Virus record (IMG/VR): IMGVR_UViG_2706794695_000013 | DNA length: 38,573 bases | Direction: 5' to 3' (one strand) | Source: a virus | Lineage: Duplodnaviria > Heunggongvirae > Uroviricota > Caudoviricetes | In this document: in pieces, positions 2,983 through 34,782 of the stretch | Layout: every line of letters begins with the position of its first letter | How positions within the stretch are numbered: the stretch's first letter is position 1 | Translations under genes and position numbers: made by a program | The notes under the pieces: model-generated | The model's database searches: none | The model's input: only the letters and a program-made list of their open reading frames with translations | What the model was told of the DNA's origin: nothing

Positions 2983-3582
2983 TCAGAATTTATAACCGAC
3001 ACCCACGATGAAACCGTCAGTGCGCCAGTCGCCACTGCCGGAGCCTTCATAAGCAATATCAATGGCCACGGATTCGGTCGGGTTAAACTGCACGCCAGCT
3101 CCCCACGCCAGAGACGTGTTGCTGTGGCGACCGTCATCACTTCCGGTCAGCACATCGTGCGTTTTCCCCTTGTTGTCAGTTACGCGAAGATAATCCCCGG
3201 AGAAAGTCGACACACGGCTGTAAGCCACACCCGCCATCGCATACGCGCTGAACCATTCATTCACGCGCACAGACGGCCCCGCCATTACGCTGAACCAGCG
3301 GTTACGAACGGAATCTTCATGCCAGCGGGTATCGCTGTAACGGGTCAGCTGGCGATTCTTGTCTCCTGCATAGCTGAATGACGTCACCAGCCCCAGTGTG
3401 TCCGTAAACTCATAACGGTATTTCACGTTAATCCCGTTCAGATCATCACTGCCGGGGACGTTCGTCGAGGCATGAAGATACCCCGCGCTCAGCGTGGACT
3501 GATGTTCAGACGCCCATGCAGGCGCACCGGATACGGCCAGACAAATGGCTGCGGACAAAATTGCTGCACAAACTTTACGCAT
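2983..3582 (-). CDS. lom: Outer membrane protein Lom (Ail/Lom family), lysogenic-conversion gene
   Basis: 199 aa; MRKVCAAILSAAICLAVSGAPAWASEHQSTLSAGYLHA... closely matches lambda Lom, including the signal peptide. Confidence 0.9.
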   Translation of the reverse strand: MRKVCAAILSAAICLAVSGAPAWASEHQSTLSAGYLHASTNVPGSDDLNGINVKYRYEFTDTLGLVTSFSYAGDKNRQLTRYSDTRWHEDSVRNRWFSVMAGPSVRVNEWFSAYAMAGVAYSRVSTFSGDYLRVTDNKGKTHDVLTGSDDGRHSNTSLAWGAGVQFNPTESVAIDIAYEGSGSGDWRTDGFIVGVGYKF

Positions 3583-8420: not shown

Positions 8421-8910
8421 TTACTGCGAAAGTTTGTTAATGGAAAGGAAGCCGCCAAAGTTGCCGACGTTATTGCGAAACTTACAGCCGCTCAGGCATT
8501 TGCTGCATTTATCCTTCGTGATATCGGACGTCGGCTGATCATATTCATCCGCGACCGCCGGACCGTGATAACCGCACTCATCGCCGCGATAGGTCCAGGT
8601 GCAGGTGTTGGCCAGCATGATACGTCCCGGAAAAACGGCACCGTCCGTTTCCGTCGGCGTGNNNNNNNNNNNNNNNNNNNNNNNNNNNNNNNNNNNNNNN
8701 NNNNNNNNNNNNNNNNNNNNNNCCCTGAATGGGATACGCCTGATACTGTCGCCCCTGCCAGGTGACCGGCTCACCTTTTTCGTTCTGCTCATTACAGAAA
8801 AAATAACGTTCTCCACCGACCTCTGTCAGATCGATTTCCCAGAGCACCACCTGGGCTGACTGAGTGAGGCGTGTCGTCTCATGATGTGTTTCCTGTGGAA
8901 TATCCTGCAT
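8421..8910 (-). CDS. L: Tail tip protein L, interrupted and shortened by N gap 8662-8722
   Basis: N-terminal piece MQDIPQETHHETTRLTQSAQVVLWEIDLTEVGGERYFFCNEQNEKGEPVTWQGRQYQ and C-terminal piece ...RIMLANTCTWTYRGDECGY...GGFLSINKLSQ both match lambda L; total span is shorter than a 232-aa L gene. Confidence 0.8.
8662..8722. other. Assembly gap (61 N) inside L
   Basis: Run of N; part of the L coding sequence is missing. Confidence 0.95.
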
Positions 8911-23728: not shown

Positions 23729-23739
23729 NNNNNNNNNNN
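23729..23739. other. Assembly gap (11 N) inside the holin gene
   Basis: Run of N. Confidence 0.95.
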
Positions 23740-23878: not shown

Positions 23879-24931
23879 TTATTTCCCCACCAGCTCGTTT
23901 ATCTCTTTCACTGTCTGATTAAACCGCTCTGACTCAAGCTCAACACCTAAGGCCCGACGCCCCAGCGCCATTGCTGCTTTTATTGTGGAACCGGATCCCA
24001 TAAAAAAATCAGCAACCAGATCACCTGGTCGACTACTGGCATTGATTATTTGCCTGAGCATATCCGCCGGTTTCTCACACGGATGTTTCCCCGGGTAGAA
24101 CTGAACGGGTTTATGCATCCAGACATCGGTATAAGGCACGGAGACTGATACGGAGAAATAGCGCCGGAGAGATTTAAACTCATCCAGCAATTCAGAATAT
24201 TTACGATTCAGTGAATCATAAGATGCCACCAGCTGGTGGTGTGGTTGTTCCAGTTGTTGTTCCTGAAACTTCTCTGCCGCTATACGGGAAAACAGTGCCT
24301 GTAACTTCCGATAGTCAGCCTCATTCGGCAACTGCCACTGACTGGCACCAAACCAGTGGGAAACCATATTTTTCTTACCTGTGGCTTCGGCAATTTGTTT
24401 TGCCGTTATACCCAGTTCGGCACGAGCATCCCTGAAATACGATATCAGCGGTGCCATTATGTGCTGTTTGAGTTCCCTTTCTTTTGCCGCATAGCCGTCA
24501 CTTTTGCCGCGATATGGCCCCTGGTAATGTTCAGCAAACAGAACGCGCTCTGTGGCAGGAAAATATGCGCGCAGACTTTCTTTATTACACCCATTCCAAC
24601 GTCCGGACGGCTTCGCCCAGATGATATGGTTAAGCACGTTGAAACGTTCACGCATCATGATCTCAATATCAGATGCCAGGCGATGCCCACAGAACAGGTA
24701 AAGGCTTCCGGCAGGTTTCAACACCCGCCAGAACTGGGCCAGACAGTGGTCCAGCCACTTAAGGTAATCTTCGTCCCCTTTCCACTGATTGTCCCAACCG
24801 TTGGGTTTCACCTTGAAGTAAGGCGGATCGGTAACAATCAGGTCAATGGAATCATCAGGCAGGGACTGAATAAAATGCAGGCAATCAGCGTTGATTAAAT
24901 CAACACTGTTTATTTTTACAGTATTTTTCAT
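23879..24931 (-). CDS. DNA methyltransferase, beta-class N6-adenine/N4-cytosine type (orphan; no cognate nuclease seen)
   Basis: 350 aa; N-terminal DPPY motif (IVTDPPYF) and C-terminal AdoMet-binding FFMGSGST; directly upstream of the holin. Confidence 0.85.
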
Positions 24932-25081: not shown

Positions 25082-25285
25082 TTACTGGCAGCGTCTGAAT
25101 TTATTCCCGTACCCGCCGTTATCCTTCGCCAGACCCGCCAGAACTAACTGAGTCAGTATTAACTGGCACCGGGCTTCGCTTACTCCGGTAGTTCTCGTCA
25201 TCATGCGTGGCGTTACCCACTTGTCAGCAGGTAAGAAATGAAGGACTGCGGCGGCGGTTTCTGTCATATCTTGCTGTTTTAGCAT
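25082..25285 (-). CDS. Hypothetical small protein (67 aa from ATG 25285)
   Basis: ORF between the methylase and the duplicated terminator; GAAGGG-type SD before the internal ATG; no recognisable family. Confidence 0.3.
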   Translation of the reverse strand: MLKQQDMTETAAAVLHFLPADKWVTPRMMTRTTGVSEARCQLILTQLVLAGLAKDNGGYGNKFRRCQ

Positions 25286-25406
25286 GTCTTTTTCCCTTCT
25301 GGTTAACATGACATACCAATAACTCTTGTCTAAAAAGCCAGCAAGATAAAAAGTCAGTATTCACGACCACCAGCGTGTTTACTGTACTGCACCAAGTTTA
25401 CGGGTA

Positions 25407-25431
25407 CAAAAAACCCGCTCAGTGGCGGGTT
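25407..25431 (-). terminator. Terminator-like hairpin, copy 1 of a duplicated element
   Basis: aaaaaacccgc tcagtg gcgggtt; near-identical to the copy at 26085-26111. Confidence 0.5.
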
Positions 25432-25508
25432 GCTATCACAGCTATATATTTACTTATTATGCCGTTACTAACATTTATCTTCGACATATAATCGAAAACA
25501 AGGTTTGC

Positions 25509-25934
25509 TTAAAACTCTGCTTTCATTTTATCCGGGAATTTTTTATTTGCAGCATAATAACTACCAAGTACATAAGCGTTCATTTGCTGCTCTACATCAA
25601 CCCGACATGCCGCACTAGAACAAGCTCCACTGATAAGCCCAAAAGAACTCCCTTTAGCAGAGAGATCAGCTTTGATTTCCTCTACAGTGTTTTTCCCCAT
25701 AGCAACTACACACCCTGTCACAATATATCTAGCTTTCACATCATCCATGCTAAGGATAGTAGTTTTCGCAATTTTGCTGTATCCATCATTTTTATAAACA
25801 TCCATGGCAAACGCACGGCAATCTGTATAATACGGACTTGCTTTAACTTGCGAATACTCAGGTAATTTCATACCTGCACAACCAACTAAACAAAAACCTA
25901 TCGCTGCTATTAATACCTTTTTCATTACAGTCAT
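25509..25934 (-). CDS. Lipoprotein of unknown function (AT-rich moron)
   Basis: Signal peptide with lipobox (MKKVLIAAIGFCLVGC); local GC content clearly below the flanking phage genes. Confidence 0.7.
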   Translation of the reverse strand: MTVMKKVLIAAIGFCLVGCAGMKLPEYSQVKASPYYTDCRAFAMDVYKNDGYSKIAKTTILSMDDVKARYIVTGCVVAMGKNTVEEIKADLSAKGSSFGLISGACSSAACRVDVEQQMNAYVLGSYYAANKKFPDKMKAEF

Positions 25935-26084
25935 AACCTAGAAGCATCATTGAAACTAATTTATTAAATAACCATCGAGTTTCTGGAATACAGACGTTAA
26001 CCATCTCTCCAAAATCTAAAAGATAATAAGAAAAAATGTTTAACGCACCAATCCATTTCATAGTTTCATGAGACATCAGGCACA

Positions 26085-26111
26085 AAAAACCCGCTCAGCG
26101 GCGGGTTTTTG
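26085..26111 (-). terminator. Bidirectional rho-independent terminator, candidate tR-prime downstream of Q
   Basis: aaaaaacccgc tcagcg gcgggttttt: GC stem flanked by A-run and T-run. Confidence 0.6.
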
Positions 26112-26153
26112 ACATTTACCAACGGTAGACATACAAGGCCCATCGTTGAGAAA

Positions 26154-26182
26154 ATCTTATCCATATTTTTTGAAAAATGCAA
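26154..26182 (-). promoter_or_regulatory. Candidate late promoter (PR-prime-like) between Q and the terminator
   Basis: On the minus strand TTGCAT, 17-nt spacer, TAAGAT; position is as expected for a lambdoid late promoter/qut region. Confidence 0.25.
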
Positions 26183-26213
26183 GTATCACGTCGACATCTT
26201 CGGCGAAAATTAT

Positions 26214-26966
26214 CTATCTTGTCACTTTTCTCAATTGCGATTCAGCATACGCTTCTTCCTGCCAGCACTTTGTAACCAGTTTATTAATAACGTCTGCATA
26301 TCCTTTGTACCACTGATAATCCGTCAGGTCCGGTACCAGTTTCTGGACATGATGCCGCGCCAGTGTGGTTGGTAAACGGCTAAACCGGTTGCCATTGCAA
26401 CGCCCACAAATCTTATAAACAGGCACACCATGAAGCCGGGTTCTTTTTTCATCCAGGACAATACCTTTACCCTTACACCCTCTGCACGCTGTGCTGACTT
26501 CTCCCTTACCATGGCAATGCTGACATAGTTCCTTCACCCACTCTTCCTTGATAACAGATTCCCCGCTTCTGGAGTGTTTCACCACTTCGCGCAATACATT
26601 ATGAAATCCAGTACCAGCACAATGCTCACAGCGAGCCTTACTTGCCGCAGACCTGGAATAATCAGCAAAGGCAAAATTCACAAGGTAAGGGATGATCTGT
26701 AACCGGGTTTCTTCACTCAATTTGTTCAATGTCGGGTTATCCAGTGCCATCGCGTAATTGAGCAGACCTTCAATCGCAAATTGAGGATCCTGAACACCAA
26801 CTTTTGCCAGGAATAAGGCAAACCCAAGCGGTGCTTTCGACTGCACCATCCCCTGCGCAGCCATCACATCCGTAATCGTTAAACCACCTGAGCCTGTCGC
26901 CGGTGCGTCATCGCTCAATTTTGGAGATTTTGGGGAGTAATATTTTGGTAAGGCTTCAAGGTTCAT
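26214..26966 (-). CDS. Late-gene antiterminator Q-like protein with DnaJ-type Cys-rich zinc finger
   Basis: From ATG 26966 (GGAG SD): MNLEALPKYYSPKSPK...; four CxxCxGxG-type repeats (CEHCAGTG, CQHCHGKG, CRGCKGKG, CGRCNGNR); last gene of the nin-type region before the late promoter and lysis genes. Confidence 0.55.
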   Translation of the reverse strand: MNLEALPKYYSPKSPKLSDDAPATGSGGLTITDVMAAQGMVQSKAPLGFALFLAKVGVQDPQFAIEGLLNYAMALDNPTLNKLSEETRLQIIPYLVNFAFADYSRSAASKARCEHCAGTGFHNVLREVVKHSRSGESVIKEEWVKELCQHCHGKGEVSTACRGCKGKGIVLDEKRTRLHGVPVYKICGRCNGNRFSRLPTTLARHHVQKLVPDLTDYQWYKGYADVINKLVTKCWQEEAYAESQLRKVTR

Positions 26967-26979
26967 GCTCGTTCTCCAC

Positions 26980-27975
26980 TTACGCCAATACGCCAATTGC
27001 CAGCGCACGATCGATAAAACGAAATATCAGCTCCAGCTGGGAGCCATACTTCTCTTCAAATGCCACGGTATCCGCATGCAGCTCGTCGTGATGCTTTCTG
27101 CACAAAGGCAACACAAAGAGGTCATGCGCTTTTGTACCCATTCCACCCTGACCGTGGCCTATCAGGTGGTGGGGATCATCAGCAGGCTTTCCACAACATG
27201 CACACGGCTGTGTCTTAACCCAGCGCGTGTACTTTTCATTAACCCAGCGGCGGCGTTTTGGGCGTAACATAAAAGACTCCGGCGACTCCGGATCCACTTT
27301 CAGCGCCAGCACCTTTTTTGCCTTATCCTGGATGATGCTGGTGGCAGGAACCGAAGGCACAAGGTCACTTTCCCGGGTGACAGACGGCACAACAGGCTTT
27401 GGTAATCTCAGTGCCTTACGGGCTGCACTTTCCGGTAAGGCATCCGCCAGGTCATTACGAATCAGCCACCAGCACAGTTCCGGCATTGTCACAACGTGAC
27501 TATCATCAAAACCGAGATCCCGACGCACAACAGACAACACCCAGCGGGCACAGTTATCCGTTGCCATTGATTCCAGCCGTTCCGTGAACTGATCGCGCAG
27601 CTGGTTATCGCAGTGCCAGCACAGACGGATTGCGCCCGGAGCGTGTCGCATTGTGGTCATGTTCTCGCTGTGCCAGTCGGAATGAGGCCACTGGCAGCCT
27701 TTTTCACGAAGTAACCAGCTTTCAAGACATTCCACGCCACCAGCACGACGGATCACTGCCTCATTGCGGAACACGGCCCGAACGGCAGGATCATCCGCCA
27801 GCGGTTGTGATGCCGCCGGAACGGCACCACTGGCGAAAGATGAATAACGTTCCGGCTCAGGCTCCAGCAGAACACGCCCCTGCATAAACAGGGGCATCAG
27901 CTCTGAACCTGGCCTGAACAATACGATCCCCATACGCGGGGCAATTTCAGGGGTCAGTAGTGCTCTCACGGTCAC
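26980..27975 (-). CDS. DUF968-type nin-region protein with C-terminal HNH-like Cys/His motif
   Basis: 331 aa; C-terminus PCACCGKPADDPHHLIGHG...CRKHHDELH. Confidence 0.55.
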   Translation of the reverse strand: MTVRALLTPEIAPRMGIVLFRPGSELMPLFMQGRVLLEPEPERYSSFASGAVPAASQPLADDPAVRAVFRNEAVIRRAGGVECLESWLLREKGCQWPHSDWHSENMTTMRHAPGAIRLCWHCDNQLRDQFTERLESMATDNCARWVLSVVRRDLGFDDSHVVTMPELCWWLIRNDLADALPESAARKALRLPKPVVPSVTRESDLVPSVPATSIIQDKAKKVLALKVDPESPESFMLRPKRRRWVNEKYTRWVKTQPCACCGKPADDPHHLIGHGQGGMGTKAHDLFVLPLCRKHHDELHADTVAFEEKYGSQLELIFRFIDRALAIGVLA

Positions 27976-34163: not shown

Positions 34164-34782
34164 TATCTAAAAGAAACACAGCACAGGCAAGATTAAACAA
34201 AATTTGGTTGTAACACGGCGTATGGCACATGCGTCGTTAGCGGTCTGGGGACGTTAAAGGGGACAATCCACTCCTTGCTCGGGCAAACAAACCAGGTAGC
34301 CGGAATGTGCAAGTCAATGATGATGCTGATAAGACGCCTAACCAGCGTGGCGATTCGGTTTGACGCCTGGGAAGAGACCAGGGTGCAACGATGAGGACAT
34401 TTATGGAACCGCGACAAAGTGTGGTGCCGTAACTGGCTAAGTGCTCTCAGCGTTGTGGTGAATGCGCAGGCTGATGCGCGAAAGACATTGCAGCTAATGC
34501 GGAAAAGAGCTGTTCGGCGGGGCAATTAAACGCCCGTGAGAGTCTGAAATAACCGCAAGCCGGAGATCAGCACCGGTCACCACAACAGCCACTGCTTTGG
34601 CGGTACCAGTTTGTACACTTGCTTCCGGCTGGTACCGCTCTTTTTACAAAACAGAGAAGAGCATCACCGGACGACGGGCTCATAACCAAATCCATCCGGG
34701 CGGCTGCCACCGCAGGTGTTCTTCTCTGTTTTGTGGAGAAACCAACCGACCTTGCAGGGTCGATATGATTAGGAGCAGCAAA

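Follow-up and report, generated by a model that had tools for sequence, protein, structure and literature searches.

The window analysed here is the whole 38,573-nucleotide (nt) stretch of the virus record IMGVR_UViG_2706794695_000013 (Caudoviricetes), and it is a lambda-like Escherichia coli prophage. Between its late antiterminator gene Q and its lysis genes lies an AT-rich insert with a gene for a lipoprotein of 141 amino acids (aa), bracketed by two near-identical terminator hairpins. The insert is very probably a moron, that is, a cassette with a candidate promoter of its own, the lipoprotein gene and a terminator, placed just past the late terminator tR' of a lambda-like late operon. An earlier note, made from the sequence alone, had called it a moron inserted after the Q-dependent late terminator, with the terminator duplicated. 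This reading stands: a Q gene, a tR', relatives with an empty site and a foreign base composition were all found. As a refinement, a duplication of the simple target-site kind is improbable.

Two terminator hairpins flank an AT-rich lipoprotein gene

A repeat search detected a 29-nt direct repeat, GGYACAAAAAACCCGCTCAGYGGCGGGTT, with copies at 25403-25431 and 26079-26107. The copies are 27/29 identical (93%) and their starts are 676 nt apart. The two mismatches are GGTAC/GGCAC and a T/C difference in the loop. The earlier note had described two near-identical hairpins with one mismatch, about 680 bp apart, and had proposed aligning them; the copies are present where it placed them, and their 24-nt core does contain a single mismatch. 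When the 38.5-kb window was searched with a pattern of the 20-nt core (at most 3 mismatches), only the two copies were found, with 0.00 sites expected from 100 shuffles. A supposed third copy (66%) within the methylase gene was discarded as noise.

All genes in this part of the window are on the minus strand. In minus-strand RNA both copies of the repeat form a CCCGC/GCGGG stem lengthened by A-U pairs, with a 6-nt loop, and are followed by U6. Hairpin 1, the Q-proximal copy, spans 26079-26110 (minus strand; stem 26090-26094/26101-26105) and has a predicted folding energy of -13.9 kcal/mol. Hairpin 2, the Q-distal copy, lies within 25403-25431 (minus strand; stem 25414-25418/25425-25429) and has a predicted energy of -12.0 kcal/mol. 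Its stem has 7 pairs, 5 of them G-C, and it is this copy that is picked by the terminator scan. The equivalent of hairpin 1 carries a terminator annotation in the phages SfV and Ayreon, and that of hairpin 2 does so in Ayreon, whose authors marked both terminators.

The order of transcription is Q, the late promoter pR', hairpin 1 (26110->26085), the lipoprotein gene, hairpin 2 (25431->25408), an orf47-like gene, a methylase gene and the holin gene. The lipoprotein gene occupies 25509-25934 (minus strand) and is supported as an open reading frame (ORF), by a match to phrog_4748 and by alignment; cleavage before Cys19 would leave a mature form of ~123 aa. An AT-rich segment encoding a 141-aa protein with a lipobox had been claimed between the hairpins, and the claim holds in each particular: the ORF runs 25934->25509, the lipobox reads LVGC, and the 647 bp between the hairpins have a GC content of 35.7%, compared with 50.9% in the window as a whole and 47-49% in the flanking DNA. 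GC at third codon positions (GC3) in the lipoprotein gene is 28%. Relative to the empty sites of the phages SfV and vB_EcoM-720R4, to which it was aligned, the insert is 25432-26107 (minus strand). These 676 bp consist of 647 bp of unique AT-rich sequence and one copy of the 29-nt repeat, and the boundaries can be slid within the repeat.

A further ORF of 75 aa (26085-25858, minus strand; phrog_37626) overlaps both hairpin 1 and the 5' end of the lipoprotein gene. In Salmonella cassettes the corresponding stretch contains indels that break the frame, with no equivalent ORF, and the 75-aa ORF is probably spurious and not a gene. In some phage records shorter ORFs are annotated in the region upstream of the lipoprotein gene.

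The Q-proximal hairpin as the late terminator

The Q gene is at 26214-26966 (minus strand; 250 aa from the ATG chosen by PGAP), and the mechanical ORF extends to a GTG at 27008. The assignment follows from Pfam PF03589 (E 6.9e-54), from the PDB entries 7UBM/4MO1 of Q-lambda (E 3.8e-37) and from the RefSeq annotation of an identical locus. The protein aligns with Q-lambda at both ends, and between them a DnaJ-type zinc finger of the form CXXCXGXG is inserted (residues 162-207 of the 264-aa ORF).

The 100 nt from Q to hairpin 1 align with the pR' region of lambda. The candidate late promoter pR' spans 26142-26182 (minus strand), with a -35 element TTGCAT at 26182-26177, a 17-nt spacer and a -10 element TAAGAT at 26159-26154. 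It resembles the TTGACT-17-TAAATT of lambda and is followed by an identical segment, CTCAACGATGGG, which is the sigma-dependent pause element of lambda (AACGAT at 26147-26142 in the window). The candidate promoter with this element is conserved in SfV and in one Shiga toxin 1a (Stx1a) phage. As a consensus match the candidate pR' is weak (7/12) and was not flagged by a standard promoter scan. Hairpin 1 is the first intrinsic terminator past it, ~60 nt from the predicted start and directly after Q. Because it is the first terminator behind Q and after a lambda-homologous pR', the Q-proximal hairpin is identified, from these sequence features, as the late terminator tR'.

In lysogens pR' is constitutively active and its transcript stops at tR' (PMC7547250). 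The pR'-tR' interval of the window (26083-26147, minus strand) should therefore give a constitutive RNA of ~60 nt in lysogens, which would be the counterpart of the 6S RNA of lambda and of the Hfq-binding small RNA (sRNA) StxS of Stx phages. The segment is a variant leader, as it is only 87.7% identical to Ayreon and to Stx2c and Stx2k phages that otherwise match at 96-99%.

Filled, empty and otherwise occupied sites

The filled configuration is common. Among 5426 complete E. coli genomes, 214 contain at least 80% of it, and it was also found in 20 phage records, including mEp460, Ayreon, PhiR47_1, fifteen Stx2c phages and phiSTEC1575-Stx2k. A 951-bp cassette query (25300-26250) is 100% identical to a prophage of E. 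coli A14, located next to the host genes dusA-zur-lexA. The sequence type 131 (ST131) strain JJ1886 is among the carriers. The Stx2k phage is annotated, and there Q is followed by hairpin, lipoprotein gene, hairpin, orf47, tRNA genes and stx2AB. The Stx2c phage records have the cassette just after Q with the same flanks; these records are unannotated and the position of stx2c was not located.

In SfV and vB_EcoM-720R4 the Q gene, pR', orf47 and the methylase gene are the same as in the window, and the site is empty, with only a single hairpin and no insert. The single-hairpin alleles of 720R4 and SfV each match one of the two copies of the window. An intact empty site is present in 182/5426 complete E. 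coli genomes, as counted with a 201-nt query that is too short for BLAST to bridge across an insert. Comparison with related prophages lacking the insert had been proposed as a check, and collinear relatives with one hairpin and no insert do exist both among phages and among E. coli genomes.

Other sites hold different cargo. In E. coli CUVET19-1704 (L020:1517-2384) the slot contains another AT-rich segment with a 176-aa ORF (WP_000966854.1; no Pfam match). The insertion point lies directly at the tR' stem, and behind it this cargo has a terminator of its own, ACCGCGTTCTCGCGGT-T7, which is unrelated. In the Stx1a prophage of E. coli 2013C-4225 (L008:840-2540) stx1AB stands downstream of a closely related Q/pR' region, separated from it by a version of the hairpin with an altered loop, AACCCGCCGATGCGCGGG-T7-GTACC. 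The slot next to tR' thus also serves the Shiga toxin 1 operon.

Probable cassette boundaries at the hairpins

Over the stretch bounded by the two hairpins, both included, the window and the Ayreon, Stx2c and Stx2k phages are ~98-100% identical. Just past hairpin 1, in the pR' region, identity drops to 87.7% in all three comparisons, and just past hairpin 2 it drops to 64.5% in the Stx2k phage. In more than 1000 E. coli genomes half-site matches stop at the hairpin (query positions 131-141 or 163). Because identity falls and half-site matches stop at the hairpins, they look like recombination breakpoints at the ends of a portable cassette. We infer that cassettes are exchanged through the short stretches of homology which the hairpins provide. 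The 29-nt repeat is probably not a simple target-site duplication.

A diverged copy is found in a Salmonella prophage. The gene is 76% identical and lies behind a Q of a different family (PF06530/DUF1133) and before a different holin. The region of homology extends from the 5' base of a hairpin that is nearly identical, CCCGCCACTGAGCGGG-U7, across the upstream region and the gene to ~10 nt past the stop codon. The gene is followed by a second tR'-like hairpin, AAAACCCGCATTGCGCGGGTTTTT, and then by a methylase remnant. The two flanking hairpins have diverged, as their loops differ from each other. Since the window copy and the Salmonella copy are both bracketed in this way, the cassette occurs between late-terminator-type hairpins in two independent Q backgrounds. 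The remnant between cassette and holin (L004:5540-5810) comes from the C-terminal part of the same DNA methyltransferase that the window carries. This suggests that the Salmonella late region derived by deletion from an orf47-methylase-type backbone.

The lipoprotein and its family

In the predicted protein the positive charges K5K6 come before the only hydrophobic stretch (residues 7-21), and the lipobox is L16-V17-G18-C19. The cysteine is followed by Ala at +2 and Gly at +3; there is no Asp at +2, and by the +2 rule of E. coli the protein would be passed to the outer membrane by the Lol system. An alignment of 8 homologues shows G18, C19, C39, C75, C105, C110 and the motif VYKNDGYSK to be invariant. 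From these features the protein is inferred to be exported, lipidated at Cys19 and to form two periplasmic disulfides. The AlphaFold2 model is all-helical (predicted local distance difference test, pLDDT, 79; predicted template modelling score, pTM, 0.75). The ratio of nonsynonymous to synonymous substitutions (dN/dS) against homologues is 0.08-0.19, with dS saturated, and the ORF is therefore regarded as a real gene under constraint.

The exact protein is found on at least 1000 contigs, where it is named 'hypothetical' or 'lipoprotein' every time. A word-indexed search of 5.8 billion proteins gave nine 90% clusters, from E. coli, Salmonella and one Buttiauxella plasmid, and a full hidden Markov model (HMM) search of 1.84 billion representative proteins gave eight; the family is thus very small. 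No match was found in Pfam, NCBIfam, PADLOC (E<=0.1) or PDB sequences. The only strong PHROG match is phrog_4748, which has no assigned function, and the proposed homology search thus led to no annotated PHROG, NCBIfam or PADLOC family. The impression that the protein does not resemble Bor or Cor was borne out: neither the lipoprotein nor its 8 aligned relatives have any Pfam match at E<=10, Lambda_Bor included, and no sequence relationship to Cor was detected. A literature search by protein accession and by combinations of moron, Q and lipoprotein returned no study of the gene.

A spanin was considered and rejected, both of the Rz1 o-spanin and of the T1 gp11-like u-spanin type. The gene precedes the holin and is not part of the lysis cassette, which in this prophage includes an Rz. 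A u-spanin is further contradicted by the lack of a second hydrophobic segment and thus of a membrane helix at the C-terminus (the last 20 residues have a mean Kyte-Doolittle value of -0.53).

Homologues also occur in settings unrelated to late operons. In Salmonella Rac-like prophages they lie beside a VapBC module in the early-left region. They are also present in 204 plasmids of ~110 kb, mostly non-mobilizable, from Klebsiella (194), Cronobacter, Citrobacter and Buttiauxella; five of the 204 were deposited as Klebsiella phages. These plasmids presumably are SSU5-like phage-plasmids. Their homologue is 54-65% identical, has the same lipobox and the same cysteines, and sits among replication genes without tR'-type hairpins. 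The most distant relative is found amid transposases and a reverse transcriptase. The lipoprotein family is consistently accessory cargo of temperate phages. The same gene without flanking repeats and with phage-like GC would have spoken against a moron; what was found instead is that the hairpin-less homologues of the Rac-like prophages and the phage-plasmids occupy other slots and have a low GC content of 39-43%.

The phage-plasmids inspected were that of Buttiauxella, one Klebsiella phage and a contig from a metagenome, and in them a second lipoprotein gene of 99 aa (phrog_7666) starts 10 nt past the homologue. Its product has the lipobox LSGC/LSAC and no Pfam match (L005:5446-5745, L012:751-1050, L016:3431-3730). 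Within the phage collection the 99-aa partner is found only in five Klebsiella phage records, all of which have the first gene too. Lambdoid cassettes carry the first gene only.

Expression of the cassette and alternative explanations

The candidate moron promoter is at 26023-26051 (minus strand), with a -35 element TTGGTG at 26051-26046, a 17-nt spacer and a -10 element TATTAT at 26028-26023. Within the 230 nt before the lipoprotein gene no other site resembles a sigma-70 promoter more closely (8/12). In the diverged Salmonella cassettes TTGGTA-18-TATCAT (9/12) scores best, and its spacing to the start codon is the same. The shared position hints at a promoter at TTGGTG-17-TATTAT.

If the insert is a moron, the following course of events may be proposed. 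In the lysogen, polymerase starting at pR' would halt at hairpin 1, and the weak promoter of the cassette would produce a monocistronic lipoprotein mRNA that ends at hairpin 2. Hairpin 2 would also keep the downstream methylase and lysis genes silent. A moron placed ahead of lysis genes needs such a second terminator, because the insulation given by tR' must be restored behind it. After induction, Q-modified polymerase would pass both hairpins, so that the lipoprotein gene would also be expressed late. The two tR' hairpins would provide the homologies at which the cassette is swapped between phage backbones, and through which it could also be lost. The product would be a helical, disulfide-bonded envelope lipoprotein of ~123 aa, predicted to be anchored in the outer membrane.

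As to function, the leading guess is a tentative one: the protein may protect the lysogen at the level of the envelope, for example through superinfection exclusion, or because it blocks a receptor in the outer membrane or a toxin that targets the envelope. A role in the phage's own lysis is less likely. A broader proposal, somewhat doubtful at present, is that this is a new family of helical, disulfide-bonded outer-membrane lipoproteins that protect lysogens, for instance through exclusion of other phages or neutralisation of a toxin aimed at the envelope, spread as a plug-in cassette whose terminal tR' copies act as a portable recombination site, in a cargo slot shared with Shiga toxin genes.

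Several points weigh against these interpretations. The match of the candidate cassette promoter is only 8/12, which is below the threshold of a standard scan, and the lipoprotein gene could be expressed only by Q read-through or by leakage of tR'. The empty sites could be secondary deletions between the repeats and not ancestral. The gene, unlike cor and llp, is not linked to a receptor-binding gene (J is ~19 kb away), and it occurs in unrelated phage backbones; for both reasons a blocking of the phage's own receptor becomes a weaker proposition.

If the empty sites were derived, the cassette would be an old resident of the Q module and the SfV-type sites would have arisen by deletion between the 29-nt repeats. 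Recombination or slippage between the repeats would yield exactly the single-hairpin site that is observed, and the 720R4 and SfV alleles, each matching one window copy, also speak for it. This scenario is nevertheless unlikely. The cassette is regarded as incoming DNA because its GC is low (15 points under the backbone, with GC3 at 28%), because the gene family has homes in unrelated phage types and because the cassette is more conserved than its flanks, which speaks for recent spread. Other cargo is also found in the same slot elsewhere. Even with some secondary losses the element would still be a moron.

It is quite unlikely that the lipoprotein gene is a late-only accessory gene, which would have no promoter of its own, depend on Q read-through from pR' and act in the lytic cycle (for example on lysis or on the envelope before burst), with hairpin 2 a by-product of acquisition. 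In its favour, the gene follows pR'/tR' directly and points the same way as the late operon, the Salmonella copy also lies between a Q gene and a holin, and the candidate promoter is weak and was not flagged in the scan. However, homologues are found in non-late settings (next to VapBC in Rac-like prophages and among phage-plasmid replication genes), and the promoter-like element holds its position across ~25% nucleotide divergence. A terminator right after the gene would be purposeless for pure read-through, and the prophage already has a complete lysis cassette.

That the insert is a small transposable element, similar to a miniature inverted-repeat transposable element (MITE) or an insertion sequence (IS), with the repeats as target-site duplication, is hardly credible: direct repeats do surround a discrete insert of foreign composition, but 29 bp is far above the typical length of an IS target duplication, the repeat search and the ORF list gave no terminal inverted repeats in the insert besides the hairpins themselves and no transposase ORF, empty sites already have the repeat, which looks like a functional terminator, and the Salmonella flanking hairpins have different loops.

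Neighboring genes and other features of the window

The orf47-like small gene (25082-25285, minus strand; phrog_331) is the first backbone gene past the slot; SfV and 720R4 have it directly behind their one hairpin. After it lies the N6/N4 DNA methyltransferase gene (N6_N4_Mtase; 23879-24931, minus strand), which Pfam and annotation identify and which is a backbone gene of the late operon upstream of the holin. The holin and other lysis and morphogenesis genes come next, and the prophage has its own complete lysis cassette, including an Rz-type gene. Another classical moron, a gene for a Lom/Ail-type outer-membrane protein, is located at 2983-3582 (minus strand). The window contains runs of N at 1445-1694 (250 nt), 8662-8722 (61 nt) and 23729-23739 (11 nt); the first interrupts an Ala/Ser-rich side-tail-fibre gene, and the holin gene is interrupted by the third.

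The sRNA-17 of mEp460-like prophages (PMC7719688) was considered as a product of the lipoprotein locus and rejected, as it maps to ~34.5 kb instead. This 193-nt, ArcA-repressed sRNA of E. coli K1 RS218 (PMC7719688) corresponds to ~34450-34640 of the window (minus strand). The first 30 nt of the sRNA are identical to 34609-34638, and its Northern probe matches 34531-34562. It has no connection with the lipoprotein locus. The authors of that study dropped 'hypothetical' genes before intergenic regions were defined (PMC7719688). Searches of Rfam gave only sub-threshold, terminator-driven matches.

Comparison with known systems

The lipoprotein moron is well-formed and widespread but unstudied, and it occupies the cargo slot next to tR' in lambda-type late operons. 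Such an element is to be expected, and is not surprising, as a genomic phenomenon. Its interest is modest and rests on the uncharacterised family, on the post-Q position in Stx2c and Stx2k phages and on the terminator as a mosaic junction. It offers a natural example of a moron ahead of lysis genes which must bring a terminator to keep them silent, and of a conserved terminator hairpin that acts as a mosaic boundary. If the protein is indeed an exclusion or protection factor, it would add a new family to the envelope defences encoded by prophages.

Morons of lambdoid phages were reportedly defined for HK97 and HK022 by Juhala, Hendrix and colleagues, with bor and lom of lambda as examples. The cassette resembles them in its absence from collinear relatives, its deviant base composition, its own terminator, its envelope protein product and its place in the late region, and probably also in having its own promoter, for which there is a candidate. 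It is unlike the bor moron in that its protein is unrelated to Bor/Iss (no Lambda_Bor match). It is unlike classic morons in that its terminator is a near-exact copy of the phage's own tR' and not an unrelated hairpin.

Cor (of phi80, HK022 and N15) and Llp (of T5) are superinfection-exclusion lipoproteins which block FhuA. The window protein shares with them that it is a small phage lipoprotein with disulfide-forming cysteines and a predicted outer-membrane location, and an exclusion role is plausible. In contrast to them, it is about twice the size, is predicted to be all-helical and is not encoded beside a tail-tip or receptor-binding gene, and no sequence relationship was detected (only phrog_4748, and no Pfam or PADLOC match). 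With the two-lipoprotein operon of the phage-plasmids the relationship is a direct one, as the first gene of that operon is a true homologue (54-65% identity). Unlike the phage-plasmid copy, which is found among replication genes, the lambdoid cassette is flanked by hairpins and does not have the second gene.

The closest parallel in position is the Q-pR'-tR' cargo slot of Stx phages. The location is the same, stx1AB is found behind a tR' variant, and in the Stx2k phage the cassette itself lies between Q and stx2. The cargo differs, being a lipoprotein and not a toxin. The cassette also puts a terminator back in place downstream of itself, while the elements that follow stx operons are different. 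The tR'-proximal slot is thus a natural example of a single position reused for a lipoprotein gene, a 176-aa ORF and stx1.

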